A stretch of DNA of 53,431 bases from a virus (IMGVR_UViG_3300014152_000002:1-53431); one strand, 5' to 3'; counted from the stretch's first letter, positions 7,572 to 53,431 are shown. Notes: generated from the letters alone by a model not told the origin. A program made the numbers and translations.

Positions 7572-8054
7572 ATGACTGCGGAAGAAACCTTCAAATCTGG
7601 CGCGCCGTCTGGCGTCGATCTTCTCGTTCGGCGGTTCCATCTTGCTGCATTCCAAGCCTCCGGTCCGGTCGGAAACTTCGGCCACGAAAGCACGGGGCTC
7701 ACCCAATTGCGAGAGATTGGCCAACCGCCGGGGCGTGGCGGCTACGGCTATGGCCAGTGGACTGGGCCGCGTCACATCCTTTTCCTGAATTGGTGCGCCG
7801 CGAACAAGTTAGATTGGCGAACCCCTGCCGCGAATTGGGGCTATCTCGTTCACGAGCTTTCCGGTGCCGATCCGCGTAACAATTACGCCTATGTCGTCGT
7901 GCATTTGCGCGAGGCGACAACCGTTGAAGAAGCGACGCGCGCATTTATGAACTATTACGAGCGCCCAGGTGTTCCAGCGTTCTCTGATCGTCTGCATTGG
8001 GCGAAAATCGCGCTGGAGGCTTATCAGGCGTCAAGAACAGCGAAGGTGGCCTGA
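7572..8054 (+). CDS. Lysozyme-fold endolysin (phage tail lysozyme / Phage_lysozyme2-like)
   Basis: GGAG RBS. Motifs GNFGHES, GGYGYGQWTGPR, YLVHEL and AFMNYYERPG. Confidence 0.82.
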   Translation: MTAEETFKSGAPSGVDLLVRRFHLAAFQASGPVGNFGHESTGLTQLREIGQPPGRGGYGYGQWTGPRHILFLNWCAANKLDWRTPAANWGYLVHELSGADPRNNYAYVVVHLREATTVEEATRAFMNYYERPGVPAFSDRLHWAKIALEAYQASRTAKVA

Positions 8055-16732: not shown

Positions 16733-17119
16733 GTGATCGACAGGACAAAGTTCGATTTTAAGTCCATCCCTCGGGGCGTTGACGGCAACTTGTCCGTGGC
16801 GCTCGCCTCATACATTGAGGTCTTCCGCGCGATCGCCGGGATTTCTGATCGAACAATCTCGTGCGAATCGGGTGGGACAAGCGCGTTCCTGTCGAATTGG
16901 CGTCGCAGCGCCAACCCGCTTACTCTCAGGCAATACGAGCGGATCGTCGCCTACATGGACCGGGCGCTGATGGAGCAGTCAGGCGTCGCGTTTGACAAGC
17001 TCGGCGCGTGGATCAATCGGAAACTGAAGGAGAAAAATCGTGATGACCGACACACAGGGCGCAGCCAAAAAGCGCGGTCGACCGGCCGGAAGCAAGAAAG
17101 CCGCGAAGCCGGAAAATGA
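16733..17119 (+). CDS. Cro-like HTH protein
   Basis: GISDRTIS...FLSNWRR...TLRQYERIVAYM resembles alphaproteobacterial phage Cro-like proteins. Confidence 0.55.
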   Translation: MIDRTKFDFKSIPRGVDGNLSVALASYIEVFRAIAGISDRTISCESGGTSAFLSNWRRSANPLTLRQYERIVAYMDRALMEQSGVAFDKLGAWINRKLKEKNRDDRHTGRSQKARSTGRKQESREAGK

Positions 17120-17594
17120 GAACGCCAAGGCGAAGGAGCCGAGGACGAACGTAAGCGAAAGCCTTGTGCTGCTGCATCTGTCTAAGATCGTCGCCGCCGA
17201 GGAGAAAAAAGACACGGCTGTCGCTAACCTCCGCGCCGCGCGCAAACTGGCTAAGGGCGACGGGGTTGACCTCAAGACGCTTGACGCCGTGCGCCATTTG
17301 GCGAGTTTGGACGAGCACGAATTGACAAGCCAATTTAATTCTGTCGCGACTTACAGCAAATATTTGTCGGTGCCGTTATATTCCACCTTCGACCTCTTCG
17401 ATAGCCCACAGGCCGCCGAGGAAGCTGTCAACGAACGGGCTTTTCTGAGCGGCATTAAGGCCGGCAAGTTTGGGCACGGGCCTGAAAAATGTCCATACGA
17501 TCCAACATCGGTCGCCGGCCAAGAGTGGATGAGGGGATGGAATGAGGGCCAAGCGATCCTCATGAAGGGATTTGGCGAGATAGGAAACGCATGA
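17040..17594 (+). CDS. GapR-like DNA-binding domain fused to an Rmf-like C-terminal domain
   Basis: AT-hook-like KKRGRP; EEKK......LR..RK.AKGDGVDLKTL; AF..G..AG......CPY......QEWMRGW.EG. Confidence 0.65.
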   Translation: MMTDTQGAAKKRGRPAGSKKAAKPENENAKAKEPRTNVSESLVLLHLSKIVAAEEKKDTAVANLRAARKLAKGDGVDLKTLDAVRHLASLDEHELTSQFNSVATYSKYLSVPLYSTFDLFDSPQAAEEAVNERAFLSGIKAGKFGHGPEKCPYDPTSVAGQEWMRGWNEGQAILMKGFGEIGNA

Positions 17595-26341: not shown

Positions 26342-26644
26342 ATGAAAATCTTCATTTTTTCCGTCACAGCCTTTATCGCTCTCGCTGGCGTCGCTCTGGC
26401 GCAACAGCCTCTGGCCCCGCCCCAAACCGTCGAGCAGGTGAGTGAGCAGGCCAACGGGATCATCACCGCCTTGCAAGCCCAACGCAATCAGGCCGCCGAC
26501 CAAGCCGTAACGGCCCAGGCGGCTGCGAGCAAGGCTAACAACGAGATCGAGAAGCTACGGAAGGAACTTGCCGAGGCGAAGGTTGACGCCATCAAGGCGC
26601 GCGCGGAGAAGCACGAGGCCCCGGAGCCAGAACCCGCGAAGTGA
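26342..26644 (+). CDS. Exported coiled-coil protein
   Basis: GAGGA RBS; MKIFIFSVTAFIALAGVALA|Q; heptad-rich body. Confidence 0.7.
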   Translation: MKIFIFSVTAFIALAGVALAQQPLAPPQTVEQVSEQANGIITALQAQRNQAADQAVTAQAAASKANNEIEKLRKELAEAKVDAIKARAEKHEAPEPEPAK

Positions 26645-32734: not shown

Positions 32735-33043
32735 ATGCCAAAAGGTGAGAGCGCGTCCAACAAGAGCGGGCTTAGCACGAACGCTCCCGAAGCAATGCAC
32801 GAATACAAGGAGCCACACGAACGCAAGGACGGTCCTTGGGAAGATTATGAATTGGAGCATGCCGGCCGCACTATCGATCACGCCGAGAAGATCAAGGCGA
32901 ATCCTAAATTAGTCGAGGCCGTCGCCAAGCATCACGAGAAAAAGGCCAAGATGCACCATAAGCTGGCAAGCGGCCTAAAGCATCACATGGCGCGCGGGCT
33001 GGTTTCAGAGAAGGCCCTCGCAAAGGCGTCGAAGCGTGGCTGA
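32735..33043 (+). CDS. His/Lys-rich small protein
   Basis: Coupled ORF directly before the portal gene. Confidence 0.7.
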   Translation: MPKGESASNKSGLSTNAPEAMHEYKEPHERKDGPWEDYELEHAGRTIDHAEKIKANPKLVEAVAKHHEKKAKMHHKLASGLKHHMARGLVSEKALAKASKRG

Positions 33044-34970
33044 GGTCTGGGACCAGGCTGCATCCGGCGACTCCGCGCGATGGGCGCCGCAGGTTGCCAC
33101 CCGCGAGAATAATGACAAATCTCCAGAGAATAGACCGCAGGATATTGACGAAGAAAAGCAACAGTTTCTTGATGTTCGTAAGTTAAGAACAATGTTCTTG
33201 GACTATTTGACCAGTAAGGTTGACGAGATCGAAGAACAAAAAGATGCTCGAAGGTATTACCATGGAGCTCATTGGACGCCTGAGCAAATAAATACTATGC
33301 GCCGCCGCCGCCAGCCGCCGCTCACTTGGAACCGCGTATCGCGCAAGATCAACCAGATTGTCGGCATTGTTGAGCGCGGGCGCTCCGACCCGAGGGCGCT
33401 CCCCCGCCACGTCCGCAGCGAGCAGGGCGCGGACCTCGCGACGCAGGTCATTCGCTACGTGCTGGAGGCCAATGACTTCAAGGGTATTGATCCTTGGTGC
33501 TTGCTTCAGTCAGGGATTGATGGCGTCGCCGGGGTGCAGCGCGTCCTGACTAAGGACGACAAAGGGAAGGTCGATATTGCCATTGCGTGGGTAGTTGGAG
33601 ACGAATATTTCTATGACCCGAAGTCCTATCGCGCCGACTTTTCCGATGCTCGTTATGAGGGCATAAGCAAGTGGTTCGATATCGATGAGGCGATTGAGCT
33701 TTTCCCTGACAAGGAAGACGAACTTCGCGGGCTCATTGAAGGCGACAGCGATCTCACGACGAACGCCGACCGCGAGTATAAGTGGGTCATCACTTCGTCG
33801 CAGCGCGTTCGCATCATTGAGCATTGGTATAAGAACCGAGGCAAATGGTGCTGGGCATTCTATGTCTCGACCGTCATCCTCGACCAAGGCGTTTCTCCAT
33901 TCTTTGACGAGCGCGGCAAGAGCGATCGATCATTCAATATGTTCTCGGTCGCGGTGGACCATGACGGCGACCGCTACGGCTTCGTCCGCAATCTGAAGGG
34001 GCCGCAGGACTCGCTCAACCAGAGCAAGTCGAAGCAATTGCATATCGCCAACTCGCGCCGGATCGTCGCGGACAAAGGCGCGGTTGATGATGTGGAGAAA
34101 GCCCGCATCGAAATGGCGCGGCCTGACGGCTATATCGAGGTCAATCCTGGCCGCACGCTAAAGCCTGACGACAAGCCGCAGGACGTGGCGGTCTTCGGCG
34201 AAATGGCTTCCGGTGCGGCGAACGAAATCGACCAGTTCGCCAGCATCAACATGGCCGTCCTATCCGGCGCGTCCATCGCGAACATATCGGGCCGGGCGAT
34301 CAAGTTGCTCCAACAGCCTGGAATGGCCGAGTTGGGGCCGTTCATTCTGAATTATCGCCAGTGGAAGCTGAAACTCTATCGGGCGATTTGGAACGCGGCG
34401 CAGCGTCATTGGACTTCGGAAAAGTGGATTCGCATATCTGACGACGAAAATCAAAAAAAGGCGTTCGTTCAGATCAACACCATGTCTCTCGACGAGTTTG
34501 GTCGACCTGTGATCGTCAACGCGCTCGGTGCGCTGGACGTGGACATTGTGCTTGAGGAAGGGCCGGACACGGGGTCTTTGACCGAAGACCTATTCGATAT
34601 GCTCAAGGGATTGCCGCCTGGCGCGGTCCCGCCCGCCGTGCTCATTGAGCTGTGGCCTGGGCCCCGCGCCGAGAAGCAGCGCCTCATGAAGATGATGTCT
34701 CCGCAGCCGACACCGCAGCAAATGGCGATGAAGCAGGCCGCTGATAAGTTGCAGATGGAGCACGCCGCGATCACAAACGCGAAAACTGCCGCTGACGCTC
34801 GCAAGTCGGATGCGCTGGCGTCGAAAGCCATCGCGGAAAGCCAACAGGCCGGTGCGCAGACGCAACTCGACGCCACAGAGTTGCAGCACAAGATTTGGAC
34901 CGAGGCGCTGGCATTGTTCCAGCCTCCGCAACAGACAGCCGCGCCAGGCCAAGCGCCCGCGCAGCAATAG
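33036..34970 (+). CDS. Portal protein (P22-like)
   Basis: YYHGAHWT.EQ...MRRR.QPPLTWNR, FYDP.S...DFSDARY, YGFVRNL..PQD..N, SGRAI..LQQ and a Gln-rich C-terminal barrel. Confidence 0.9.
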   Translation: MAEVWDQAASGDSARWAPQVATRENNDKSPENRPQDIDEEKQQFLDVRKLRTMFLDYLTSKVDEIEEQKDARRYYHGAHWTPEQINTMRRRRQPPLTWNRVSRKINQIVGIVERGRSDPRALPRHVRSEQGADLATQVIRYVLEANDFKGIDPWCLLQSGIDGVAGVQRVLTKDDKGKVDIAIAWVVGDEYFYDPKSYRADFSDARYEGISKWFDIDEAIELFPDKEDELRGLIEGDSDLTTNADREYKWVITSSQRVRIIEHWYKNRGKWCWAFYVSTVILDQGVSPFFDERGKSDRSFNMFSVAVDHDGDRYGFVRNLKGPQDSLNQSKSKQLHIANSRRIVADKGAVDDVEKARIEMARPDGYIEVNPGRTLKPDDKPQDVAVFGEMASGAANEIDQFASINMAVLSGASIANISGRAIKLLQQPGMAELGPFILNYRQWKLKLYRAIWNAAQRHWTSEKWIRISDDENQKKAFVQINTMSLDEFGRPVIVNALGALDVDIVLEEGPDTGSLTEDLFDMLKGLPPGAVPPAVLIELWPGPRAEKQRLMKMMSPQPTPQQMAMKQAADKLQMEHAAITNAKTAADARKSDALASKAIAESQQAGAQTQLDATELQHKIWTEALALFQPPQQTAAPGQAPAQQ

Positions 34971-35112: not shown

Positions 35113-36153
35113 ATGGCGAAAGACGACGATATTCTGCGCGATGCGATCATCGGCACGGAGAAAGAGGTATTCGGCGACGCCTTCGACAAGGAGGAATTGA
35201 CGCTCGACGAAACCGGCGACCGATCGATTGAAGCGATGGGCGAAGGTCTCGAAGGGCAGAGAGAACCCGAAGATGAAGGCGACGAAGAGGAAGATGTCGA
35301 GACGACAGAAGCCTCTGAGGACAAGCCGGAGGGAGAAGAGGCAGCTACCACCGAGACCACCGCGGAGGTTGCTGCGGAAGCCGCTCACGAAGCGCAGGGG
35401 CGTGTTCCGTCCGGGCGCCTACGTGAAGAGGCAGAGAAGACGCGCGCGGCCCAGGCCGAACGTGATGCGCTCAAGGCGCAACTCGAAGCGGAGAAGACGG
35501 CAAGCCAAAGAGCAATCGCCGAACTCAATGCGAAATTCGAGGGCTTCATTGCTTCCCAACGCCAGCCGGCGCAACCCGTTCAGCCGAAGCCTGAAGAGGC
35601 CACGCCCGACCTTTTCGAAGACCCGACCGCTTTCGTCAACCATCTGCAAAAAGGCTTCGACGCCAAACTCGCCGCCGTCAATCAGCAGATCAAGGAACAG
35701 CGCATCAACATCAGCATGGAGTTGTCTCGCACACGACATGGCGAGGCGTTCGATGCTGCGTTCGGCGCGCTCAAGTCTCTTGACGCCAACAACCCAGACA
35801 ACCGCCAGCTTGTGCAACGCCTCATAGACGCGCCGAACCCCGGCGAGGCCGTCGTGACGTGGCACAGGCGCAACGAGGCCCTTCGCGAGGTCGGCGACGA
35901 TCCCACGGCCTACAAGGCCAAGATCGCCGAAGACACCCGCAAGGCGCTGATGGCCGACCCGGAATTTCGCAAGCAGCTCGTCGCCGAACTCCGCGGCGAA
36001 GCGATGACCGGCGACAACGGCAGGCCCCGCACAACCGTCAAACTCCCGGCGTCCCTGAACCGGGCGGGCGGGAACAACACGCGCGCTCCGAATGATCTCG
36101 AAATTTATGACGGATCGGAAAGCGCGACATTCAGTTCGGCTTGGACAACCTAA
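35113..36153 (+). CDS. Capsid scaffolding protein
   Basis: Acidic N-terminus, VP..RLREE, coiled coil, PDLFEDP and LP.SL. Lies between portal and capsid genes. Confidence 0.82.
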   Translation: MAKDDDILRDAIIGTEKEVFGDAFDKEELTLDETGDRSIEAMGEGLEGQREPEDEGDEEEDVETTEASEDKPEGEEAATTETTAEVAAEAAHEAQGRVPSGRLREEAEKTRAAQAERDALKAQLEAEKTASQRAIAELNAKFEGFIASQRQPAQPVQPKPEEATPDLFEDPTAFVNHLQKGFDAKLAAVNQQIKEQRINISMELSRTRHGEAFDAAFGALKSLDANNPDNRQLVQRLIDAPNPGEAVVTWHRRNEALREVGDDPTAYKAKIAEDTRKALMADPEFRKQLVAELRGEAMTGDNGRPRTTVKLPASLNRAGGNNTRAPNDLEIYDGSESATFSSAWTT

Positions 36154-36229: not shown

Positions 36230-37396
36230 ATGGCCGCTTCCGTAACTCAGGCTAATAATAAACTCATCGTATTCCGTAAGCAGATTTTCCGGGAATACGT
36301 GCGCGAAAACTTGTTCAGCCCCTACATGGGGACGGACATCAATTCGATCATCCGCGTGATCCCCGATCTCGACAAGGGCGGCAAGAACGGCGGCGAGCAG
36401 ATCAACGTCCCGTTGATGGCCCGCCTTCAGGCCCAGGCCATCGCGTCAGGGCCGATGGTCGGAAACGAAGAGGCTCTCGACAACTACGGGATGCGTCTTT
36501 GGATCGATTGGGCGCGCAACGCCGTCGTCATCAACAACGCGGAAGAGCAGAAATCGTCCATCGACCTGTTCGCCGAAGCGAAGCCGATGCTCGTCGATTG
36601 GGGCAAGGAACTCCAGCGCGACGAGATTTGCGACGCCTTCTATGCTCTGCCGGCGCAATCGTCCCCGGCGGGCCTTGGCTCCAACAACGGCCAGCGCGTC
36701 AACGGCCTATTGTTCGACGCGGCCACGGCGGCGCAGCGCAACACCTGGATCACGGACAACGCGGACCGCATCCAGATCGGCCACTCCAACACGGCGAACC
36801 TGTCGGCGGGCAACTTCGCCGCGTCGATGACGGCCATCACCACGACGACGGACGTTATCTCCGGCGCCATTCTGATGACCATGAAGCGCCGCGCGAAGAG
36901 AGCCAACCCGCGCATCCGCCCGTTCAAGCTGAAGGAGAACGGAACGGAGTGGTTCGTGCTCTTCGTCGGGCAGGAACAGTTCCGCGACTTGGCGAACGAC
37001 ACCGACATCAAGACGGCAAACCAGAACTCCCGTGCGCGTGAGCAGCAGGGGTATATGAAGAATCCGATCTTCGTCGATGGCGATTTGCTCTACAACGGCA
37101 TCATCATCCGCGAAATCCCGGAGCTTTCGCTGCGGCTCCCCGTCTTCTATCAGACGGCGGGCGCCGCCAACGTCCAGGTCGCCCCGGCGTTCCTGTGCGG
37201 TCAGCAGGCGCAGGCTTGGTGCTGGGGCAAAATGCCAACCCCGACGTTTAGGAAAGAGGATGATTATCAGTTCCTTCGCGGCGCGGGCCTGAAGATGGCC
37301 TACGGCATTGGCAAGCTCGCCAAGCTGACCCCGGCCAACAACTTCAAGGAATGGGGTGTATTCACTGGTTTTTTCACGGCTATCGCCGACGCGTGA
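36230..37396 (+). CDS. Major capsid protein
   Basis: FREYVREN.FSPYMG, GNEEALD, KNPIF..GDLLYNGIIIREIPE, LCGQQA and DY.F..G. Strong codon bias. Confidence 0.9.
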   Translation: MAASVTQANNKLIVFRKQIFREYVRENLFSPYMGTDINSIIRVIPDLDKGGKNGGEQINVPLMARLQAQAIASGPMVGNEEALDNYGMRLWIDWARNAVVINNAEEQKSSIDLFAEAKPMLVDWGKELQRDEICDAFYALPAQSSPAGLGSNNGQRVNGLLFDAATAAQRNTWITDNADRIQIGHSNTANLSAGNFAASMTAITTTTDVISGAILMTMKRRAKRANPRIRPFKLKENGTEWFVLFVGQEQFRDLANDTDIKTANQNSRAREQQGYMKNPIFVDGDLLYNGIIIREIPELSLRLPVFYQTAGAANVQVAPAFLCGQQAQAWCWGKMPTPTFRKEDDYQFLRGAGLKMAYGIGKLAKLTPANNFKEWGVFTGFFTAIADA

Positions 37397-37458
37397 TGAA
37401 TGACGGCGGCGCGCTGATGCGCCGCCTCTTCCTTCAATTCGAACAGACGAGAAAACCC

Positions 37459-38061
37459 ATGCTGAAAAACTTCCACAAACTCGCGACTGCGCTCGCCATT
37501 GCGATGGCGTTTGTCTTCGCGCCGATCATCTCGGCTAGCGCCTACACAATTGACCCGCAGGTCTACGCCGGGACGAAGATAATCCCGATGCGGACATGCT
37601 CGGCGACGCAGAACGTCTGCTATACCCGCGTAACGGTGAACTTCAACGACCCAAACATCAAGAACGGTATTTGGTTCGCGTCGATTCCGGCGAGCGCTTA
37701 CATCCTGGCCATCGACGCGGACACGACCACCGCGTGGAACGCGACTACGACCAACGTCCTCACGCTTGGCGTAACGCAAGCGAGCGCCAACGAACTCATG
37801 GCGGACTGTGGCACGGCAACCGCGTGTGTCAGCAACAACACAACCACTATCGCGACCGGCGTCGTTCACTTGACGACAGCGGCCGGCCTCGGCGTGGCGG
37901 TGACAGCGAATACGTCGCTCCAAAAAGCCTACAGTTCGTCGGGGACAAGCGTAGTGCCTGCATATCTTGCTCTCTATGCGAAATATACGCAGACCGGCAC
38001 GGCGGCGACGACTGGCTCCACGACCTTCGTTATTACTTGGGCAAAATCGGACGACCAGTAA
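37459..38061 (+). CDS. Capsid decoration/cement-like protein with N-terminal signal peptide
   Basis: Directly after the capsid gene. R.TVNFND......ASIPASAYIL......TTAWNATTTNVLTLG resembles decoration proteins. Starts MLKNFHKLATALAIAMAFVFAPIISASA|Y. Confidence 0.68.
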   Translation: MLKNFHKLATALAIAMAFVFAPIISASAYTIDPQVYAGTKIIPMRTCSATQNVCYTRVTVNFNDPNIKNGIWFASIPASAYILAIDADTTTAWNATTTNVLTLGVTQASANELMADCGTATACVSNNTTTIATGVVHLTTAAGLGVAVTANTSLQKAYSSSGTSVVPAYLALYAKYTQTGTAATTGSTTFVITWAKSDDQ

Positions 38062-38063
38062 AA

Positions 38064-38597
38064 ATGGCCTGGCCGAAAGGGCGTCCTCGGAAGGCGAGAG
38101 TTGATCTCCCGCCTTCCATCACCATTACCGAGGAACCAGATATGCAAGACGAGTTCGAGGAATTTGTGACCTATCTCCCCGGTGAAGGCGATCCGGTTAA
38201 GACCAAATGGCGGGGGGTCGAATTCATTGCCAACATCCCGACTCGCGTTGCGAACAAAGACCACATCGAGGCGGCGCGCGCCAATCGCTTCTACCGCGTC
38301 GGCAATGACGCGCCGCAAGAGAACCCAAACCGAGCGCCGACTGACGCGATGGAATACCGCGGGCATGTCCTCGGATGGATGGAAGGCGTTTCGACGATTG
38401 AGCAGCTCGTCAAGAATTGGGCTCAAGATCGCGACCTCCGGCTGAAATGCGAAATCGGCCACGACGACATCTCCTATCTCGGAACTCTGATTGAGCCGAA
38501 GCTGCGCCAGATGCGGCTGTCGGAGGGCTTGAGCGATGCCCAGACGGCCGAAATATGGATGCGGTATGGCGTTTTTGAATTGCCCTGGAGGGCCTGA
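38064..38597 (+). CDS. Hypothetical head-module protein
   Basis: VTYLPGEGDP...KWRG.EF.AN.P...NRFY.V. Confidence 0.65.
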   Translation: MAWPKGRPRKARVDLPPSITITEEPDMQDEFEEFVTYLPGEGDPVKTKWRGVEFIANIPTRVANKDHIEAARANRFYRVGNDAPQENPNRAPTDAMEYRGHVLGWMEGVSTIEQLVKNWAQDRDLRLKCEIGHDDISYLGTLIEPKLRQMRLSEGLSDAQTAEIWMRYGVFELPWRA

Positions 38598-38983
38598 TGG
38601 TTTCGACGCCGTATTACACAGCGAGCGATCTCGTCACCGAGGCGCTTGCCAATCTCGGCGTCATCGCGGCCGGCCAGACGATTGCACCCGAAGATTTCAA
38701 TTACGTCAACGACCGCCTCGATGCGATATTCCGCAAACTTGGCGCGTTGGAAATCGTCTACGTCGCGGATCCGGGGAACATTCCGGGCGAATTCTTTGTG
38801 GATTTGGCATCTATCGTCGCCGGGGAGTGCGCGACGAAGTTTGGCGCGAGCGCGGACTTCATTGGGCCGCTCATCTCTGCGGGGTTGGGATCGCCGCCAG
38901 GTTCGGGGACGGCTGCGATCTCGCTCAAACAAATGACGCGAGGAAGACCTACGGGAGAAATCTTGCGAACAACATCGTTCTAG
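38597..38983 (+). CDS. Head-tail adaptor, P22 gp4-like
   Basis: T..DLVTEAL.NLGV.AAGQT...ED, plus position and size. Confidence 0.75.
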   Translation: MVSTPYYTASDLVTEALANLGVIAAGQTIAPEDFNYVNDRLDAIFRKLGALEIVYVADPGNIPGEFFVDLASIVAGECATKFGASADFIGPLISAGLGSPPGSGTAAISLKQMTRGRPTGEILRTTSF

Positions 38984-39068: not shown

Positions 39069-39890
39069 ATGGCTGAGATAGACATAGAGCATTTGCCTTT
39101 CACGCGCAAAGAGGCTCTAGAAACCGGATCGAAGCATTTTTTCACCGGCGAGGCATGCGGCAAGGGGCATATCTCGCCAAGGCTCGCATCGAATGGCATA
39201 TGCACCGGCTGCACTCGCGCTTGGTATGCCGCTAACGCAGAGAAGAGCATCGCGGCGGCAAAGGCTTGGCAAGCAGCCAATCCTGAGAGGCTAAAAGAAA
39301 CAAATCGAGCATATCGCCAGGCCAATTCGGATAAGATTCGCGAGAACAATCACGCTTGGCTGGCAGAGAACCAAGAAAGAAACCGTGAAACACAGCGCGC
39401 ATATCGTGCGGCGCATCGGGATAAATATCGGGAACACAACCGATCTTGGACAAAGAATAACCCGGATAAGGTTCGCGAGTCGATTCGTGCTTGCCAAGCA
39501 GCCAAGCCAGAAAAATATCGAGAGATGAAGGCCGCCTATCGTGCATCTCATCCTGAAATGATGAGAAAATGCAGGAAGGCTTGGAAACAGGCCAACCCTG
39601 GCAAGATCGCAGAACTTGACCGCAATCGCCGCGCCCGTAAACGCAATGCCGAAGGCAATCACACAGCAGCCGATGTTGCGCGCATCCGCCAGGCGCAGAA
39701 AGACCACTGCGCCATGCCAGATTGCCGATCAAAGCTGAATGGAGAAGGCCACGTGGATCACATCATCGCGCTCAGTAAGGGAGGATCGAATTGGCCCCGC
39801 AACCTCCAGCTCCTATGCGAGCCGTGCAATCTCTCTAAGAGCGCGCGTGATCCGATTGAATTCGCACAATCGCGTGGGATGCTAATCTAA
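39069..39890 (+). CDS. HNH endonuclease
   Basis: TRKEA...G.KHFFTG..C.KGH...R......C..C, a helical repeat, and C...C......HVDHII.LS.GG.N...NLQLLC..CN.SK. Confidence 0.92.
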   Translation: MAEIDIEHLPFTRKEALETGSKHFFTGEACGKGHISPRLASNGICTGCTRAWYAANAEKSIAAAKAWQAANPERLKETNRAYRQANSDKIRENNHAWLAENQERNRETQRAYRAAHRDKYREHNRSWTKNNPDKVRESIRACQAAKPEKYREMKAAYRASHPEMMRKCRKAWKQANPGKIAELDRNRRARKRNAEGNHTAADVARIRQAQKDHCAMPDCRSKLNGEGHVDHIIALSKGGSNWPRNLQLLCEPCNLSKSARDPIEFAQSRGMLI

Positions 39891-43153: not shown

Positions 43154-45318
43154 TGGTTGCGCCTTTCGTCGCCGGTCCATCCTACCCGACGCTGGACAAC
43201 ACGCAGCTCGGGACGGCGCTCGGGAACTTGCCGGGAGACTATCGAAAGGCGCAATCCGACCAACTCACGCTGCAACAGCAACAGCAGGAAATCGAGCGAC
43301 AGAGGATTCTTGCCGAGCAGCAAAAGGCGCAACAAACCGCCTTCGCTGGCGGCCTTCCGATGGCCAATGGCCAATTGGATACGGCCAGTTATATGCAGAC
43401 GCTCGCTCAGAAGGGCTTGCTCCCCCCGGACCAAGCGGCGAAGCTGGCGGGCCTTCAGCTAGAGCAGCAGCAATACCAGCCGGCGCCCGCCGATCAATTC
43501 CTTGGCGGCGGCGGTGGCGCTCCACAGGCAGGCGCTCCGCCATCGGCCGGTGGCGACGCTCTTGGGCGCATTGAGGCCGGAATCGCGCGCGTCGAAAGTG
43601 GCGGCGAAAAAGACCCATATCGCGCCATTGGACGGGAGACCGGAAGCGGCGACCGCGCCTATGGCAAATATCAGGTCATGGGCGCCAACATCCCAAAATG
43701 GACCGAGGAGGTTCTTGGCCGCAAGATGACGCGGCAGGAATTTCTCAACGATCCACAGGCTCAGGAAGCTGTCGCTAAGGCAAAACTCGGACAATATCTC
43801 GAAAAATACGGCGACGCCCCGGACGCGGCTTCAATGTGGTTTACCGGCAAGCCCTTAGCGCAAGGAGCGAACCGCAAAGACGTGAACGGTATGACTGGCT
43901 CCCGCTACGCCGAATTGGCGACGGGAACCCAGAATGATGCATCTCCGTCCATCCCCGCCGTCGCGCTGACTGCCGGAAGTTCAATCCCGCGCTCGAATGG
44001 TGGCGCGCAGCCGGCGGGCGATACCGGCGGCATCGGTCTTGGCGCGCGCGCGGCAGGCCTGGGACAAGTTGGTGGCGGTCCGCAACCAACGCTCGGCGCG
44101 GGTCAGACCGTGGCGAGTCTTGCCCAAGGACTATCTCCGAACCAAGCATCGAACCTTGCGAAGGCCATCGGCGCTCCAAACGTCAACGCGCCTCTAAATC
44201 CAGATCAAACCCAAAAGTTGCAGCGCATCATCGCGGGGAACTATGGCGGCGGTCAGGGCCAACAGCCGGCTCAGGGCGGCGCTCAACCGGCCCAATCGCC
44301 ACAGCAAGGCGGGCAGCCCCTCGTCTATCAGCCGCCGCTTGATCGAGGGTTCAAGACGCAGCAGGAAGAAATTGCGGCGGAAACGAAGAGAATTTCCGAG
44401 CTTCGGCAAACGATGAGCAAGCCGGCGCAACAGCGCGCCGACGAGCTTGAAAAGGATCGCGACGCGAGGATCAAGGCAATCTCGCCGCAAACGGTCCATC
44501 CCGGCACACAATTCGTTTCGCCAACGGGAGAAACGCTTTTCGAGGCTCCGACGGCCGGCGAACGCACCTTGGCGGAAAGAAAGGACGAAGCGCACGAAAT
44601 AGCGCAAGGAATTAAAAACGGGACAATTCCGCCAACAGCGGCGACGGGCTACGGAGTTGGGCCGCTAGTTCGGGCTGAACTTGCCAAAGGCGGCGATTAC
44701 AATCTCACCAAAGCCAACCTCGAATATGAGGCGGCGAAAAAGCAAGTAATGTCGCTTAATGGTCCTCAGATGGTCCGATTTAACGCGCTGGCGGAAAGCG
44801 TCGTCAACACGATCGATAGGACGGTTGAGACCTCGAAGGAATTGAGACTTTCTGGCATTCCTCTCGCGAACAAGGTTGAACTTGGCGCGTGGATGCAAGC
44901 GAATGGAAATAGCCCGAAAGGCCAACTTGTCGCAAAATATATGACTGATATCAATACATTGAAGGAAGAATACGCAAACTTGGCGAATGGCGGTTATGCA
45001 CCAACGGAATCGGCGTGGAAGCTGTCGAACATGGTTGTCAACGGCGACTATGGCTCGAAGCAACTTGAGGCGAGCTTAGAAGAAGCGCAGCGCCTTATCA
45101 ATTTCCGACGCGCCGCATTTTCCGATCTTTCCACGATGGGTCCGGGGGCTCCAAACCCATATATGCCGGGACGTGGGGCGGGTGGCGCTGTGCAGCCATC
45201 AACGGAAGGCGGCGCGAGAGGACAAGGCGGCGTTCCCCAACCAGGCCATATCGAGCAAGGCTATCGCTTCAAGGGCGGCGATCCATCTAAGCCTGGAAGC
45301 TGGGAAAAGGCTCAATAA
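43153..45318 (+). CDS. DNA ejection protein with an internal muralytic (lysozyme/SLT-like) domain
   Basis: Gln/Gly-rich. IARVESGG...AYGKYQVM...W...FL.DP.AQ...AAS.WF.G; C-terminal GYRFKGGDP....WEK. Confidence 0.75.
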   Translation: MVAPFVAGPSYPTLDNTQLGTALGNLPGDYRKAQSDQLTLQQQQQEIERQRILAEQQKAQQTAFAGGLPMANGQLDTASYMQTLAQKGLLPPDQAAKLAGLQLEQQQYQPAPADQFLGGGGGAPQAGAPPSAGGDALGRIEAGIARVESGGEKDPYRAIGRETGSGDRAYGKYQVMGANIPKWTEEVLGRKMTRQEFLNDPQAQEAVAKAKLGQYLEKYGDAPDAASMWFTGKPLAQGANRKDVNGMTGSRYAELATGTQNDASPSIPAVALTAGSSIPRSNGGAQPAGDTGGIGLGARAAGLGQVGGGPQPTLGAGQTVASLAQGLSPNQASNLAKAIGAPNVNAPLNPDQTQKLQRIIAGNYGGGQGQQPAQGGAQPAQSPQQGGQPLVYQPPLDRGFKTQQEEIAAETKRISELRQTMSKPAQQRADELEKDRDARIKAISPQTVHPGTQFVSPTGETLFEAPTAGERTLAERKDEAHEIAQGIKNGTIPPTAATGYGVGPLVRAELAKGGDYNLTKANLEYEAAKKQVMSLNGPQMVRFNALAESVVNTIDRTVETSKELRLSGIPLANKVELGAWMQANGNSPKGQLVAKYMTDINTLKEEYANLANGGYAPTESAWKLSNMVVNGDYGSKQLEASLEEAQRLINFRRAAFSDLSTMGPGAPNPYMPGRGAGGAVQPSTEGGARGQGGVPQPGHIEQGYRFKGGDPSKPGSWEKAQ

Positions 45319-47003
45319 TGCCGGGACCGTGGGAAAACTACACCCCTCAGCCTTCGGGCGCGCAGCCGGCGGAAGATGGACCATGGACCAAATATCAGCC
45401 AGCGGCGCATCAAGGCGGCGCACAGGCTCCAAGCATGTCGTGGGGAGAAGTAGGGTCACAAGCGCTCCATAACGCCCCGGAAAGCGCCGGACGATTTATC
45501 GAAGGCATTGCCCAGCCATTCATGCACCCCATCGATACCGCAACGGCGCTTTCTAATGTCGGAACTGGCGCGATTGCAATGGGGGGCTCGGCGCTCGCGG
45601 CGGCTGTTCCGAGCGAGGCCCTGCCCGAGAAAACCTTCGGCGAGCGCTATCAGCACGGGCTTAATGTCGTAAAGGAAAAATCCGGCGCGTCCGAGGCTTA
45701 TCCCGAGGCTGTGGGTAAATACTTCACTGATCGCTACGGAAGCATCGAGGGCTTCAAAAAGGCGGTCGCGACTGATCCAGTTGGCGTGATCGGTGATCTT
45801 AGCGCGGGGCTAACTGCCGGCGGCGCAGCGGTCGCCCGCGCTCCCGGCGTCATCGGTAAGGTTGGCGAGACGGCACGCGCGGCGGGGGATATTCTCAACC
45901 CCGCAATGAGACCGGCGAAGGCTGCTGGCGCGGCGGGAGAGGAAGCGGCGAGGCTCCGGCGCCCTATCGAGGCTCCAACGAGCGATGAGCTTTACGAGGC
46001 TGCGAGCGCCGCATACGAGCACCCGTCCATAAAAGAGATTGTCGTCAAGCCTAGCGCCTTCAAAACGTGGAAGGACGAGCTTCTCGCCACGAACGATATC
46101 GTGGATGAGGATTTGTCGCCAAAAACATTCAAGATACTAAATCGTCTTGATGAACCGCCAGAAGGATCATTCCTTGACGGGCGGAGCATCCAGTCTCTTC
46201 GGCGCAAGCTCGGGCAAGCGGCGGGTTCCGTCGATCCTACCGAAAGGAAGGCAGCGCGGGACGCCATCTCGTCCCTGGACGACTTTCTCGCGGACATTCC
46301 TAAAAAGGCGGTCTTGAAAGGCGACCCCAAGGCGGTTTCCGCCGCTCTTGAGGAGGCGAGAGGGAACTACGCGGCGGCAAAACGTAGCGACGTAATCGAG
46401 GGAAAACTTGAGGCGGCGGAACTTCAAGCTGGGAGCGCCAACAGTGGGATGAATCTCGATAACGCGACGCGCCAGCGCCTTAAAGACGTTCTCAAGAGCG
46501 ATAAGTTGCGCCGTGGATTTTCCCAAGAAGAACTTACGCAGATGCGGAAGATCGTCACGGGAACCCCCGTTGAAAACATCACGCGTCGCGTCGCGAATAT
46601 GCTTGGCGGCGGGGGAGGGATGGGTGCCACCGTCACCGGCGCTCTTGGCGGGGCCGCTGGCGCCGCCGTGGGGCATGTCCCCGGCGCGATGATCGGGGCG
46701 GCGATCCCCGCCGCCGCTGGGTATGCGCTCAAGAAACTGAGCGCGGCCATGTCGCAGGCAGATGTCCGTAGGTTGCAAGAGATGGTTCGGTCTAGATCCC
46801 CGCTTGGCCGTCAAATGCAGTCCTCCTTGGGTAAGTTCGGGAAGGCGAGCACAGCGGCCAAAGGGTCACCAACGTCCAAGAATATAGCCCGCTTCATGCT
46901 GGCGGCGAGAAATCTATCCACGAACCTTGCCGATGCCGGGATGAACGTCCCTCCCGAGGATATTGCCGGTGGCTTTGCGTCGGCGGACGGAAACGAGAAA
47001 TAG
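45318..47003 (+). CDS. DNA ejection protein
   Basis: N-terminal GPW..Y repeats, Ala/Gly-rich hydrophobic segments, third gene in the ejection cluster. Confidence 0.68.
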   Translation: MPGPWENYTPQPSGAQPAEDGPWTKYQPAAHQGGAQAPSMSWGEVGSQALHNAPESAGRFIEGIAQPFMHPIDTATALSNVGTGAIAMGGSALAAAVPSEALPEKTFGERYQHGLNVVKEKSGASEAYPEAVGKYFTDRYGSIEGFKKAVATDPVGVIGDLSAGLTAGGAAVARAPGVIGKVGETARAAGDILNPAMRPAKAAGAAGEEAARLRRPIEAPTSDELYEAASAAYEHPSIKEIVVKPSAFKTWKDELLATNDIVDEDLSPKTFKILNRLDEPPEGSFLDGRSIQSLRRKLGQAAGSVDPTERKAARDAISSLDDFLADIPKKAVLKGDPKAVSAALEEARGNYAAAKRSDVIEGKLEAAELQAGSANSGMNLDNATRQRLKDVLKSDKLRRGFSQEELTQMRKIVTGTPVENITRRVANMLGGGGGMGATVTGALGGAAGAAVGHVPGAMIGAAIPAAAGYALKKLSAAMSQADVRRLQEMVRSRSPLGRQMQSSLGKFGKASTAAKGSPTSKNIARFMLAARNLSTNLADAGMNVPPEDIAGGFASADGNEK

Positions 47004-47969: not shown

Positions 47970-48479
47970 ATTTACGATTATCCAGTCCTGTTCCCGGCGA
48001 CGAGCAATCGCGCGAATTGGGCACAAATCATCCAGATCGCCGACGACGACACCGGTGATTTGGTTGCTTTGACGGACTCCAACGGCGTCCCTCTATGCCA
48101 GATATATCTTGAGATTTCGCCGCCTCGCCATCATGGAGGCGGCCACGGCTATGGGCCTTATTCTTCGCCTTACTATGGCAACGAAGGCGAACCTTTGATA
48201 TTCGGGTCTCTCGCGGATTATATTTCAATAATAGATGTCGGAACAATTCAAATAAATATACCTTATACGGTGATGCAGAAAATGCGCGGCAGCATGACTT
48301 ACGACGTTTATTTGCGGCTTGAATCACTGCAAAGCGGAATAGACGTAAACGGCGACTTTAGCAGCGATTTCAGCGGCGACTTCAACGTAGTCCAAAGCAG
48401 CGTCTCAAGCAACCAACCCGACGCGCGTCAGCTTCTAATCGGTAAACTTCCAATCGCCTTTGGAGGACGTGGCGTATGA
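47970..48479 (+). CDS. Fibre adaptor-like protein, probable ATT start
   Basis: AGGAGG RBS followed by an in-frame ATT at 47970, giving (M)YDYPVLFPATSNRANW... Confidence 0.65.
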   Translation: MYDYPVLFPATSNRANWAQIIQIADDDTGDLVALTDSNGVPLCQIYLEISPPRHHGGGHGYGPYSSPYYGNEGEPLIFGSLADYISIIDVGTIQINIPYTVMQKMRGSMTYDVYLRLESLQSGIDVNGDFSSDFSGDFNVVQSSVSSNQPDARQLLIGKLPIAFGGRGV

Positions 48480-48952
48480 ACCTGCGAGAGATTGTTAAAT
48501 ATGACCCAGAAACCGGCTGCTTCTCATGGCTGATCTCAGGGAAGGGAATCCGCCAAGGATACCCGTGCGGGGCCATCACTACTCAAGGTTATCATCGCAT
48601 CAAGATACAACAACGTGAATATCTAGCACACCGGTTGGCGTGGTTTTTTATGACAGGTTCATGGCCAGATGGAGAAATAGACCACATAAACATGGATAAA
48701 GCGGATAATAGATGGATAAATTTGAGAGATGCGACAACTAAGCAAAATCAATATAATAGGACTGCTCCATCAAATAATACATCTGGATTTAAGGGCGTCA
48801 CGTGGAATAAGAAATGCAAAAAATGGCAATCATCTATAGGTTATGAAGGAAGATATGTTTATCTAGGTCTGTTCGACTGCCCCGCAGCGGCCCATTTCGC
48901 TTATGTGATAGGCGCTGACAAACACCACGGAATGTTTGCGAGGTCGTCATGA
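48476..48952 (+). CDS. HNH-AP2 homing endonuclease
   Basis: YDPETG.F.W, YLAHRLAW...G.WP...IDHIN....DNR..NLR, NTSGFKGV.W and YLGLF. Confidence 0.92.
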   Translation: MNLREIVKYDPETGCFSWLISGKGIRQGYPCGAITTQGYHRIKIQQREYLAHRLAWFFMTGSWPDGEIDHINMDKADNRWINLRDATTKQNQYNRTAPSNNTSGFKGVTWNKKCKKWQSSIGYEGRYVYLGLFDCPAAAHFAYVIGADKHHGMFARSS

Positions 48953-49435: not shown

Positions 49436-51829
49436 ATGAAGAGACTTGTCCTAGCGCTGTCGCTGGCGCTCACTTTCGTGCGCCCGGCGCCCGCCGATAC
49501 GTTCACGCAATTGCTTCTCGGCGTCGATACCACGCCGACGCCTTCGCCGGTTTGCATCATGTCGCCAACGGGGATTTGCGCGGCGCAGTTGGGGACGTGG
49601 AACATCGGTACGAGCACATGGACGCCAGCGGGTGGGGGTGGCGGCGGTGCGATCTCTTTCCCGCAAACCGTCGCTGGCACGACGACGAGCGGCGGCGTCC
49701 CCTATTTTTCGTCCGCGACTCAGCTTTCTTCCAGTGGGTTGCTCGCCGCTAATGCTTTGATGGTCGGCGGCGGCGCTGGAGCTGCTCCGGCAACCGTCAC
49801 CACGGGGATGGGAGTTGTCACGGCGCTCGGTATCGCGGTCAATAATGCCAGCGGCTTCCCGCTTCTCAACGCGACGCTTCCCACGGTCGGACATTGCATC
49901 CAGTGGGGATCGTCTGGACTGACGGACGCGGGCGGGGCCTGCACCACGGGCGGAGGCGGCGGCACGGTATCATCCGGCAACGCGGGCCAGCTTACCTATT
50001 ACGCTTCGACGGGAACGGTCGTGTCCGGCGCGACCACGGGAACAGGCGTTCTCACGGCGCTAGGACTCGCTACCAACGCGCTCGGCGGGGTTCTGACGAC
50101 GCCGAGCGGGGCCTGCACGTCCGGGCAATTCTTGACGTTTCAGACAGCCGGCTCGGTCCCGACATGCGCGACACCAGCCGTTTCCGGGCTGACGGTTGGC
50201 TCCACGACCATCTCCGGCGGCACGAATGGATATGTGCAATACAACAACGGTGGCCTTCTTGGCGAGAAGGCCACCACGGGAACCGGCAATGTCGTCCTAA
50301 GCGCTTCGCCGACGTTTAGCGGCACGATTGGCGGAACTCAGGTTGTCCCATATTCGGCGCTCGTGAACATTGGCGCCAACACCGTTCTTGGACAAGTCCT
50401 AGCAGGAACTCCGACGCAGCTCTCTGTGCCATCATGTTCGGGAACCGGGCAAGCATTGAACTTTACGAGCGGCGGCGGCTTTGGATGCGCGACAACAAGT
50501 GCTGGTGGAACCAGCGCGCCGGCGGTCAATGCCGTGGCGACATGCGGCGTTTTGATCGGGGGGTCGGTCGACCAATCTACGAAGATCAACTCATGCCTCG
50601 CGACCTACAGCGCTGTGTCGTTCCCTTGCGGAACTTACTACACGACAAATTCGATAGTCGTCGCGTCTAGCCAGTCGATATTTGGAGGCGGGCCTTATTG
50701 CACCATCTTCAACATCAATTCGACGACCGCCCCTGCGATCCATGTGACGCCGACGCCGTTTAACGTGACGCTTCGAGATTTTGCGGTCCTTCGAACAGGG
50801 ACTCCAACATCGGGAGCCACGGGGATACTAATTGAAGACTGCAACGCTGATGTGCAGATAGATCATATTTGGATAACGGGGCAGTGGGATGGAATAAGTT
50901 TAGGGTCAACCGCAGGTGGAAATGCTCAATTCATCGTAGCTACTGAGAATTACGGCAACGGCTTTATTTTGACGACATCTGCTTCATGCGGCCAGCCGAT
51001 GCAGTGGAACCTATTGACTACGGCTTCGACGTATAACGATGGGTGGGGATATTACACAAACCCAGCTCTGACTGGTGGAGATGTCGCAATTCTCCTCCCT
51101 TGGCTTAATGCTAACTCGTTCGCCAACACAGCGGGAGGCTTCGGCTTCCTTGGCACGGCGGCGCATCCGATCCACGGCGTCTCGCTCTATAACTGCGTGT
51201 CGTCGACTGACGGCGGTGTGAACGGCGGCCAGATCGTCATTAACAGCGGCAGTGGACACACAATTAAGGGGTGCTATATCGAGCTTCCCGGAGCAGGGAC
51301 AACTGGTCACACGACGACGACCCCGGCGTCAAATTCAGGCTACGGCATATCGCTTGAAGGAAGCAACGGCATTGGGTGGATCTCCATTCAAAATAATAAC
51401 ATAGCAAATACGGCTTACAGTGGCATAAGCATCGCGGCAAACACCGTATATTCATTGAATGTGACGGGAAATATGATCCACGATCCAGGTTGGGCCGCGA
51501 ATAACACGTATGACGGCATAGTCACTACTAGCGCGATAACAAACGGCATCATATCGGGAAACACGGTTGACCACAATGCGTCGGGTGCGTCAAATGCAAA
51601 CCTGTTTAGAAACGGCATAAACATTTTCGGGACTCAGACGGCGCTCAGTATGGTTGGTAACGTCGTGCAGGAATCGGGTTCTTACGGACTGTTTTATAAT
51701 TCAGCGCCTAGCTCTTACGGAATGACAACAGGCAATATTTTCAGCGGCGCAGCAGGCGGCTGCACGGGGACCGGCTATGTGGCTGCTTCAAACTATCATG
51801 TCGGAAATGTCGGGGGCGCGGGATGCTAA
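49436..51829 (+). CDS. Signal-peptide-bearing tailspike with right-handed beta-helix (depolymerase-like), 797 aa
   Basis: MKRLVLALSLALTFVRPAPA|D; DQSTKINSCL.....FPCGTY; repeated GI.I/NN.I beta-helix rungs. Confidence 0.8.
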   Translation: MKRLVLALSLALTFVRPAPADTFTQLLLGVDTTPTPSPVCIMSPTGICAAQLGTWNIGTSTWTPAGGGGGGAISFPQTVAGTTTSGGVPYFSSATQLSSSGLLAANALMVGGGAGAAPATVTTGMGVVTALGIAVNNASGFPLLNATLPTVGHCIQWGSSGLTDAGGACTTGGGGGTVSSGNAGQLTYYASTGTVVSGATTGTGVLTALGLATNALGGVLTTPSGACTSGQFLTFQTAGSVPTCATPAVSGLTVGSTTISGGTNGYVQYNNGGLLGEKATTGTGNVVLSASPTFSGTIGGTQVVPYSALVNIGANTVLGQVLAGTPTQLSVPSCSGTGQALNFTSGGGFGCATTSAGGTSAPAVNAVATCGVLIGGSVDQSTKINSCLATYSAVSFPCGTYYTTNSIVVASSQSIFGGGPYCTIFNINSTTAPAIHVTPTPFNVTLRDFAVLRTGTPTSGATGILIEDCNADVQIDHIWITGQWDGISLGSTAGGNAQFIVATENYGNGFILTTSASCGQPMQWNLLTTASTYNDGWGYYTNPALTGGDVAILLPWLNANSFANTAGGFGFLGTAAHPIHGVSLYNCVSSTDGGVNGGQIVINSGSGHTIKGCYIELPGAGTTGHTTTTPASNSGYGISLEGSNGIGWISIQNNNIANTAYSGISIAANTVYSLNVTGNMIHDPGWAANNTYDGIVTTSAITNGIISGNTVDHNASGASNANLFRNGINIFGTQTALSMVGNVVQESGSYGLFYNSAPSSYGMTTGNIFSGAAGGCTGTGYVAASNYHVGNVGGAGC

Positions 51830-53431
51830 TGAAAATGAGAAACGCTCTCGCGGCGCTTTTCCTCGCGCTATCTCTGCTCATCGGTGTCGGCTCGGCGCGC
51901 GCGCAAACTCCGACGTGCTCGGATAACTTCCTCGCGATTCAAAATCTCATCAACCAAGACATCATTTCTGGCGTCGGGGGCGGGATCAAAGCTACGACCG
52001 TCAATTCGCTGATGACGATCCAAAATAATTGCTACCTTAATGTCGAAAACTATAATTCGTCGGCGTTGGCGGGGCTCGCTATCGCGCCAAATACGTCAGG
52101 CGGATTCGCGACGTGGCCGGTTGCCGGTGGCGGCGCTCCGGGCGGCGGAAGTGGTCAACTGCAATACAACAACGCCGGGGTGTTTGGAGGATTCACGCCG
52201 ACCGGCGATTTGACGTTTTCGGTTCCGAATTTCACACTCAACACCGTCAACTCAAGTCCAGGGTCTTTCGGATCGTCAACCCAATGCCCGACGATCACGG
52301 TTAACGGGAAGGGGCTCGTAACGGCGGCTTCGCAAACCGCGTGCGCCGGCGGCGGAACATTGTTTTTCCCTCTCACGGTCTCCGGCACGACGACCAGCGG
52401 CGGCATTCCATATTTCGCGAGCACAACCTCTCTAGCGTCAAGCGGACTATTGACGGCGAACGCTCTCATGATTGGCGGCGGTGCTGGTGCGGCGCCGTCC
52501 ACAACAACGACAGGCGCTGGGGTGCTGACCGCGCTAGGGGTCGCGGTAAACGCAGCGACTGGCCTCCCGCTGATCAACGCGACGCTCCCCACGGTCGGCC
52601 ACTGCCTGCAATGGGGCTCGTCCGGCATCACCGACGCGGGCGGGTCTTGCACCACGGGAGGCGGCGGTGGAACCGTGTCAAGCGGCAACTCTGGGGCTCT
52701 CACCTATTACGCATCCACGGGCACGACTGTTTCGGGCACGGCCACCACAAACGCGAGCATATCTGGCGCTGCCCTGTCTCTCGGTTCGTCCGGCGTAAAC
52801 GGATCAATCATATTCGGCGGATATACGTCGGGGACCGTCACATTAGAGCCCGTGACCGCCGCGCTTGGCTCCGCTATAGCATTTTTGCCCGCGAATACAG
52901 GCGAGATCGCCGAGCTTAACTTTGCTCAGACGTGGAGTGCCGCGCAGACGTTTGGCGCCAGCGACATCGTGCTCACCGGAGCTTCTGGTTGCGCGACATT
53001 TTCCGCCGGGGTTTTGTCAGGCACTGGTTTGGCGTGTAGTGGTGGCGGCGCGGTTTCCTCGGTCGCAAACAGCGACGGCACATTGACGATTAGCCCGACC
53101 ACTGGCGCCGTTGTGGCGTCCTTGGCGCTCGGCCATGCGAATACATGGACCGGAAATCAAACATTCCCTTCTTCGTCAATTGCGACGACGACGCTCACGG
53201 GGGCGCTACAAGCTGGCCAATTCCCCGCCATGACCGGAGATGTGACGAATACCGCCGGGTCGCTGTCGACGACCGTGGGGAAGATCGGTGGCCAATCGGT
53301 CTCGCTTGCCGGCGGCTTCTCGACTGTCGGCGCATACACGATCACGCTCACGGCGACGGGGGCCACGACGCTCACGCTGCCCAACAGCGGCACGCTGGTT
53401 ACGACGGGGGTGACGTCGCTTAGCAGCCTAG
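51829..53431 (+). CDS. 5' part of a signal-peptide-bearing tail fibre-like protein (continues at 1-932)
   Basis: TAATG overlap; MKMRNALAALFLALSLLIGVGSARA|Q; open to the window end; GQLQYNNAG.FGG and ITVNGKGLVTAAS fibre motifs. Confidence 0.85.
   Translation, partial: MKMRNALAALFLALSLLIGVGSARAQTPTCSDNFLAIQNLINQDIISGVGGGIKATTVNSLMTIQNNCYLNVENYNSSALAGLAIAPNTSGGFATWPVAGGGAPGGGSGQLQYNNAGVFGGFTPTGDLTFSVPNFTLNTVNSSPGSFGSSTQCPTITVNGKGLVTAASQTACAGGGTLFFPLTVSGTTTSGGIPYFASTTSLASSGLLTANALMIGGGAGAAPSTTTTGAGVLTALGVAVNAATGLPLINATLPTVGHCLQWGSSGITDAGGSCTTGGGGGTVSSGNSGALTYYASTGTTVSGTATTNASISGAALSLGSSGVNGSIIFGGYTSGTVTLEPVTAALGSAIAFLPANTGEIAELNFAQTWSAAQTFGASDIVLTGASGCATFSAGVLSGTGLACSGGGAVSSVANSDGTLTISPTTGAVVASLALGHANTWTGNQTFPSSSIATTTLTGALQAGQFPAMTGDVTNTAGSLSTTVGKIGGQSVSLAGGFSTVGAYTITLTATGATTLTLPNSGTLVTTGVTSLSSL
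53309..53431. repeat. Terminal overlap, copy 2 (identical to 1-123)
   Basis: Direct sequence identity. Confidence 0.97.

Follow-up and report, generated by a model that had tools for sequence, protein, structure and literature searches.

We propose that the gene directly following the major capsid gene of this virus encodes a capsid cement (decoration) protein with a signal peptide (SP) and two cysteine pairs, and we favour a reading in which the protein keeps an unchanged molecular job while now maturing outside the cytoplasm. Judged from the sequence, export and cleavage of the protein are very likely, and the formation of its disulfides is likely. For its binding to heads at or after lysis, the step that also sets the strength of the overall mechanism, we estimate a probability of about 0.5. 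The window, i.e., the whole stretch of DNA that was analysed, covers 53,431 bp and is a complete virus record, with 123-bp exact direct terminal repeats (1-123; 53309-53431). The first-pass annotation had described a 28-aa signal peptide (ASA/Y) and the motifs CSATQNVC and CGTATAC in the gene after the capsid gene, and this description was exact for the ORF at 37459-38061. The features of its product are:

37459-37542, + strand: predicted Sec-type signal peptide, residues 1-28, cleavage ASA/Y29 (from the sequence; helix 5-23 in the model)
37543-38058, + strand: mature protein, residues 29-200, with an N-terminal arm (29-53) and a beta-sandwich core (54-195) in the AlphaFold2 model
37597-37620, + strand: Cys pair 1, C47-x6-C54 (CSATQNVC), found in 57/122 SP-bearing and 0/123 SP-less family members
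37807-37827, + strand: Cys pair 2, C117-x5-C123 (CGTATAC), in a loop insertion confined to a subset of members, found in 17/122 SP-bearing and 0/123 SP-less members

The target gene is positioned between the capsid gene and the head-completion genes, within a head module of the following order:

33036-34970: P22-type portal
35113-36153: probable scaffold
36230-37396, + strand: major capsid protein gene (PF13252, E 6.8e-40; phrog_334, E 2.6e-68)
37405-37426, + strand: GC-rich hairpin (9 bp, 8 GC) with a T/C-rich tail, from a terminator scan, between the capsid gene and the target
37459-38061, + strand: target gene, pre-protein of 200 aa plus stop (ATG 37459, TAA 38059-38061)
38064-38597 and 38597-38983: two small ORFs after the target
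After the small ORFs: an inserted HNH endonuclease, then an Hc3-like head-closure/tail-hub protein

The gap from the capsid-gene stop to the target start is 62 nt, and the target is present as a single copy in the window (100% self-match only). The gene order of the phage Pam1, portal-scaffold-capsid-cement-adaptor, is the same as in the window, and the capsid protein of the window shares 32.9% identity with the Pam1 one at 94% query coverage (E 1e-42). Among related viral loci, 74/79 have a capsid-gene match upstream of the target homologue, and this match persists even where the capsid protein is only ~25% identical to that of the window. The capsid protein encoded at 36230-37396, of the PF13252 type with an HK97 fold, is the presumed binding partner of the target.

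HNH endonuclease ORFs lie within the structural module at 39069-39890 and 48476-48952. The former is an apparent mobile insertion, since close relatives (e.g., L002 and L003) have the 128-aa gene and the Hc3-like gene side by side, without an intervening HNH ORF. A 561-aa ORF in the tail region (45318-47003) matches phrog_21712 'major head protein' (E 2.9e-21), a label that is probably misleading as the true capsid gene is the one at 36230-37396. Elsewhere in the window, the C-terminal part of a 184-aa ORF (17040-17594) matches ribosome modulation factor (PF04957, E 1.2e-8), an unusual find in a phage.

The AlphaFold2 model of the target was built on 83 homologues and has a mean pLDDT of 83.7, with a helix at N-terminal residues 5-23, then an arm modelled with less confidence, and seven beta strands. 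Apart from the SP helix and a four-residue turn at 33-36 the model is beta only and contains no coiled coil. The core fits a beta-sandwich (jellyroll/Ig-like) of ~125-155 residues that matches solved cement chains, and the best structural matches of the model are phage cement proteins, so the earlier claim of kinship to decoration proteins finds its homologues at the level of structure. In a structure search independent of Foldseek, covering 48,161 representative chains, the cement proteins of Pam1, GP4 and KHP40 took ranks 1-3. The jellyroll cement chain of Bordetella phage BPP-1 (3J4U chain H), for which we know of no signal peptide, came at rank 6 with a low score. Chain 7eel_H is the 'Cement (decoration) protein' of Pam1 and is identical to Pam1_06. 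Chains J-R of GP4 are the cement protein gp1, forming trimers at the quasi-three-fold axes according to PMC9698820, which gives different folds for lambda gpD, T4 Soc/Hoc and phage L Dec (tulip, OB, beta-tadpole).

Sequence comparison contributed less to this assignment. The target had no match in Pfam or PHROGs, the 83 alignment members gave only scattered chance matches in Pfam, and the only match in a PDB sequence profile search, to the signal peptide of PmoB, was not significant. With hhalign, the alignment of the target family reached a probability of 0.6% against the Pam1 cement sequence and 5.4% against a 46-sequence Pam1-type profile, the latter over 87 co-linear columns, and neither was significant. 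The ESM Atlas returned unnamed viral clusters and a sub-threshold lead to PF09956 Phage_cement_2 (score 0.77). Complex prediction for the capsid protein with the mature target (29-200) gave no answer (score 0.00) and is neutral on binding. As the profile comparison is not significant, membership in the cement family rests on fold, position and partner and not on sequence. The first-pass annotation had called the protein cement- or decoration-like, and the fold, the synteny in 74/79 loci and the Pam1-homologous capsid partner back this, while sequence-profile homology to the Pam1 cement protein is not demonstrable. Together with the model, these results support the target as a predicted member of the family of small beta-sandwich capsid cement (decoration) proteins.

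The known members of this fold differ from the target in the features of interest here. Pam1 gp6 (PDB 7EEL chain H; Pseudanabaena phage Pam1) has no SP and a single Cys, whereas the target has both an SP and Cys pairs, and its mature form has an extra loop with C117/C123. GP4 gp1 (8H89 chains J-R) and the KHP30/KHP40 cement proteins (7DN2, 7DOU) belong to T=9 capsids of phages with other hosts (Ralstonia and Helicobacter); we saw no mention of an SP for them, while the target carries a predicted one.

The only PHROG that the family touches carries a different label. In total, 42/83 family members match phrog_20969 'Rz-like spanin' (best E 8.4e-9), and the target has an N-terminal hydrophobic segment, which together would make it an Rz-like inner-membrane spanin. 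Every Rz-like i-spanin has an N-terminal TM anchor, after which comes a periplasmic domain with a helical coiled coil, and its gene would be expected in a lysis cassette with an o-spanin partner. The target model, however, has only beta strands beyond residue 36 and no coiled coil, and 123/245 classified family members have no hydrophobic N-terminus. The PHROG match spans the beta-sandwich core (profile ~33-134 of 147) and is equally good for SP-less members, and P0001 itself falls below the phrog_20969 threshold. In addition, the gene lies in the head module, away from the lysis genes of the window, one of which is a separate Rz-like candidate:

5264-5809: SP-bearing ORF with a weak SLT match, likely a secreted SLT-type lysin
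7572-8054: Phage_lysozyme2 ORF (E 3.5e-24)
26342-26644: SP/TM-bearing ORF with weak Rz-like spanin matches

A spanin role for the target is thus hardly credible, and given the beta fold, the head-module location and the matches to SP-less members, the phrog_20969 label is most likely an annotation error. The lysis-type genes themselves are scattered in the window, and no holin was identified among its ORFs.

Residues 1-28 of the target are MLKNFHKLATALAIAMAFVFAPIISASA, followed by YTIDP. The n-region contains K3 and K7, the h-region (L8-I24) consists of ~17 uncharged hydrophobic residues, and the c-region has P22 at -7 and A26-S27-A28 at -3 to -1 before Y29; there is neither a lipobox Cys at +1 nor a twin arginine in the n-region. 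On its own, such an N-terminus is not beyond chance, because a loose SP heuristic flags dozens of six-frame ORFs in the window. We nevertheless judge the SP to be real because the n-region charge and the cleavage site are conserved in 103/103 SP-bearing homologues. In these SP forms (dereplicated at 85%), Ala at -1 and A/S/V at -3 are found in 103/103, a count somewhat favoured by construction since our own cleavage-site heuristic prefers A-x-A. Their n-region charge is +1 to +5, their median SP length is 25, and the +1 residue is L/Y/V/I in 94/103 and never Cys. As for the start site, the upstream in-frame ATG at 37351 falls inside the capsid gene, and in the relatives L004, L006 and L008 stop codons close that upstream frame just before the conserved M-L/F-K start.

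The family is known in no cultured phage, as tblastn of P0001, P0127 and P0111 gave no match in 50,697 phage records. A word-indexed search retrieved 156 relatives, all named only 'hypothetical protein', and when 1.84 billion cluster representatives were scanned in full with an HMM, 1366 passed E ≤ 1e-3, of which 518 also passed E ≤ 1e-10. The typical member has ~135 aa and no SP, and such short forms dominate among the 150 best matches listed. In bacterial genomes the family is found in prophage-like loci of Hyphomicrobiales and other Alphaproteobacteria and, farther afield, in Clostridia MAGs and one Paracidovorax. SP forms in genome records were seen in Hyphomicrobiales MAGs only (3/3), and the hosts of SP-form prophage loci are Rhizobiales, Pseudolabrys and Bradyrhizobium MAGs.

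We collected 271 homologues and kept 248 after dropping 23 with a partial core. An SP form was defined by an N-terminal extension with a hydrophobic segment and an SP-less form by ≤9 residues before the core, which divided the set into 122 SP-bearing, 123 SP-less and 3 odd members with an N-terminal extension of another kind, such as read-through. The short forms are genuine, since the frame of SP-less genes is closed by stop codons a few codons upstream of the start and the gap to the capsid gene is too small for a signal peptide. One SP-less clade (P0077, P0081, P0082, P0127 and P0131; loci L038, L042, L047 and L049) is sister to the main SP clade in FastTree, and its members start with M-[YL]-[LFV]-D-[PQ]-x-K. 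The predicted mature ends in SP forms are …A/L-V-T-D-P-N-K and ASA/Y-T-I-D-P-Q (slash marking the cut). As the SP-less start equals the predicted mature N-terminus, both forms apparently yield the same mature protein. The capsid proteins at these four loci are ~80% identical to that of the window, and this is the identity between the capsid proteins of SP-form and SP-less-form phages. Across the family, 22 core columns have the same residue at ≥70% in both the SP and the SP-less class, and the conserved core motifs include F93-N94-A95, T97-T98-N99 and Y176-x-QTGTAAT-x-G186.

We consider it likelier, from these comparisons, that the SP was gained than that it was lost, because Pam1 gp6 has no SP, and the short forms are wider in taxa and dominant among the 150 best matches listed. 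The first-pass annotation had likewise spoken of a gain, which agrees with most of the family and the Pam1 cement protein being without an SP and with the stops that close SP-less genes upstream, the direction being read from an unrooted tree. The trees are weakly supported, with low backbone support in IQ-TREE, and the 8-9 SP state changes that they imply are an unreliable number. We propose that the SP was acquired by one large clade along with a few small ones, which so far are phages or prophages of Hyphomicrobiales (Bradyrhizobium, Pseudolabrys).

A cytoplasmic isoform started from an internal ATG was also considered as a general mechanism and was ruled out, since a suitable Met between the h-region and the core is present in only 12/103 SP forms.

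Cysteines were counted after the hydrophobic segment in the 122 SP and 123 SP-less members. Among the SP forms, 19 had no Cys, 2 had one, 78 had two, 1 had three, 19 had four and 3 had six; among the SP-less forms, 68 had none, 44 had one, 11 had two, and none had three, four or six. Leaving the members without Cys apart, the SP forms thus have even counts in 100 cases and odd counts in 3, while the SP-less forms have even counts in 11 and odd counts in 44, their cysteines being scattered singles. Five recurrent pairs were found, and only in SP forms. The pair 47/54 is present in 57/122; in 40 of these it stands alone, in 14 it is joined by 117/123 and in three by other additional Cys. The pair 87/190 is present in 21, 87/128 in 13 and 56/74 in 3, and a separate well-supported SP clade has further Cys-pair patterns. 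The ten Cys-pair combinations listed for SP-less forms were each seen just once.

The first-pass annotation had suggested that the SP co-varies with the Cys pairs, which the counts bear out. The association gives a Fisher p of 9e-10 at 60% dereplication, a value that ignores shared ancestry, and an independent-pairs test of SP against Cys pairing was not significant (median p 0.6-1) and was underpowered, with 4-5 usable pairs. Sister contrasts with support nevertheless point in the direction of the association; one of them sets P0078 (SP, 87/128) against P0183 (no SP, one Cys) with support of 100/99. More weight than the Fisher tests is carried by several pair positions that are fixed in SP lineages and none in SP-less ones. 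That paired Cys are fixed only in SP-bearing lineages is what disulfides formed in an oxidising compartment would leave behind, and hence argues for real export. As a counterpoint, 19/122 SP forms are without any Cys.

The N-terminal segment could instead be an uncleaved anchor or a poorly used signal, with a cytoplasmic pool of the protein decorating the heads and the cysteines serving something other than disulfides, e.g., metal binding. The uncharged stretch is indeed long for a Sec signal (~17-20 residues), and four Cys arranged as CX6C…CX5C could in principle bind a metal. However, a mere anchor would not keep Ala at -1 and A/S/V at -3 in 103/103 members, and with its positive N-terminus an anchored beta-sandwich would face the periplasm anyway. 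A metal site fits poorly with the 78/122 SP forms that have just two Cys and with the five different pair positions, and an internal Met for a cytoplasmic start is available in 12/103 only. The first-pass annotation had also allowed that the hydrophobic segment might be a retained structural element; SP-less homologues exist, from which it follows that the fold can do without the segment. We therefore regard a non-exported target as very unlikely.

To our knowledge, tailed-phage capsid proteins are all made, folded and assembled in the reducing cytoplasm, and we know of no tailed phage with a capsid protein routed through Sec. The stabilisers of tailed-phage shells, i.e., isopeptide chainmail, cement trimers and insertion domains, reflect this cytoplasmic constraint. 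For the target, we envisage that the pre-protein would be made late, together with the head genes, exported unfolded via Sec and cut after ASA28. Folding would take place in the periplasm, with both bonds, C47-C54 and C117-C123, closed by the host Dsb system. Opening of the inner membrane by the holin would then bring the stored cement together with finished, DNA-filled heads, to whose outer surface it would bind as in Pam1, GP4 and KHP30. The outcome would be a disulfide-hardened decoration that is impossible to make in the reducing cytoplasm.

Addition at lysis is conceivable because lambda gpD, T4 Soc/Hoc and phage L Dec are small proteins that attach to the shell only once it is mature and expanded, and in vitro they can be supplied to heads already assembled. 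Holin lesions merge the cytoplasm and the periplasm before the envelope breaks, and this, together with the ability of decoration proteins to bind finished heads, makes lysis-time decoration physically plausible, as the first-pass annotation had proposed. These known decoration proteins are all made and bound in the cytoplasm, and lambda gpD is needed during the packaging of full-length genomes; if the target were needed for packaging like gpD, addition at lysis would come too late. Virion proteins with cleavable SPs are found in filamentous phages, where pVIII and pIII are routed via Sec/YidC and pIII has periplasmic disulfides. Unlike the phage of the target, filamentous phages belong to another realm and are extruded at the membrane, with no cytoplasmic icosahedral head and no lysis.

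The hairpin at 37405-37426 bears on how much cement would be made. The RNA fold of 37390-37470 has a free energy of -27.2 kcal/mol (z -3.28), with 0/200 shuffles as stable, and relatives with over-long gene calls have the hairpin stretch in translation as 'MNDGGALMRRLF', to which extent it is conserved. The hairpin resembles a terminator or an attenuator, and as an attenuator it may set the capsid:cement ratio. It may also push cement expression below 1:1, which counts against head decoration.

Before lysis, cytoplasmic heads are out of reach of an exported protein, and this favours another reading in which the cement fold, exported and disulfide-bonded, is now off the virion and has a periplasmic or extracellular job alongside other secreted phage proteins, e.g., in binding to the envelope or to polysaccharide, in release from debris or in keeping out related phages. 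The phage of the window and its relatives do encode several large, Cys-rich ORFs with SPs, which in the window were called by our own heuristic scan:

49436-51829, + strand: SP-bearing ORF, 797 aa, 18 Cys
51835 to the record end, continuing in frame into 124-932, + strand: SP-bearing ORF that wraps the ends, ~800 aa, 8+4 Cys
932-1804, + strand: SP-bearing ORF, 290 aa, 4 Cys
1970-3709, + strand: SP-bearing ORF, 579 aa, 4 Cys
3720-4790, + strand: SP-bearing ORF, 356 aa, 6 Cys, matching phrog_5939 'tail protein' in the distal part only (360-651 of 801)

Their Cys counts are all even, while three SP-less tail ORFs of the window have zero Cys, and a Pfam search of this run of large ORFs (49436-4790) returned no family. 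Similar SP-bearing large ORFs are carried by the relatives G001-G005. One of these, G001, has such ORFs and yet an SP-less cement homologue, which suggests that secretion is a general habit of the group and is not tied to the head.

Two rare fusions, found by profile search, point to a connection between the cement protein and this secreted set. P0130 (332 aa) and P0133 (731 aa) combine an SP, the cement domain and Ig-like repeats (three in P0133), and the C-terminal domain of P0133 is 32% identical (E 1e-22) to the secreted 290-aa protein of the window (932-1804). Each is a single-member cluster from one contig. A separate search for longer forms of the family found none, and the gene neighbourhood of the two fusions was recovered neither in the viral scan nor in two metagenome scans. 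A homologue of the secreted 290-aa protein was found in none of five relatives, and one viral locus was found otherwise. The fusions resemble the Hoc-like display of Ig-like domains and would fit a capsid-displayed adhesin; by tying the cement protein to secreted proteins they would equally feed an off-virion role.

Several observations stand against such a role. In SP-form loci the gene has kept its position immediately behind the capsid gene, SP and SP-less proteins conserve the residues that define the family to the same degree, and the mature N-terminus is shared by the SP-less clade next to the main SP clade. Moreover, as the capsids are ~80% identical, a head that needs the cement in one phage likely needs it in the other. 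We consider an off-virion job rather unlikely. An unchanged job on the head, performed by a protein that would now mature outside the cytoplasm, is favoured because the core residues are kept, the gene has not moved, the capsid proteins are ~80% identical and an internal Met is rare.

Combining these elements, we tentatively suggest, at somewhat less than even odds, a two-compartment maturation. The head would be built and filled in the cytoplasm, while the cement would be exported by Sec, folded by Dsb and stockpiled in the periplasm, to snap on in the seconds that separate holin triggering from rupture of the envelope. If so, the fused Ig-like/adhesin modules of some relatives would take the same route, and perhaps so would the other secreted, Cys-paired, fibre-like proteins. 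In a full-text literature search, judged mostly from titles and abstracts, no SP-bearing capsid cement or decoration protein was described, and the passages of PMC3556154 and PMC5567305 in which the search terms co-occur are unrelated to SP-bearing cement.

The family has 1366 cluster representatives but is absent from Pfam, and its 'spanin' label in PHROGs is probably wrong; it deserves a name and a correct annotation. If the target acts off the virion instead, it would be a clear instance of a secreted role being taken on by a capsid protein. A conserved cement clade with canonical SPs and repeatedly evolved Cys pairs suggests that, in some phages, a portion of the shell may be handed over to the periplasm in return for disulfide-bonded armour, with the particle perhaps completed only at lysis. 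If true, this would be a new assembly step in tailed phages, and the timing of lysis would gain a role in morphogenesis. The varied Cys-pair positions across SP-bearing lineages would in that case reflect selection, in Hyphomicrobiales soil phages, for virion surfaces hardened by disulfides, and the protein would be a natural scaffold to display oxidatively folded domains on capsids.
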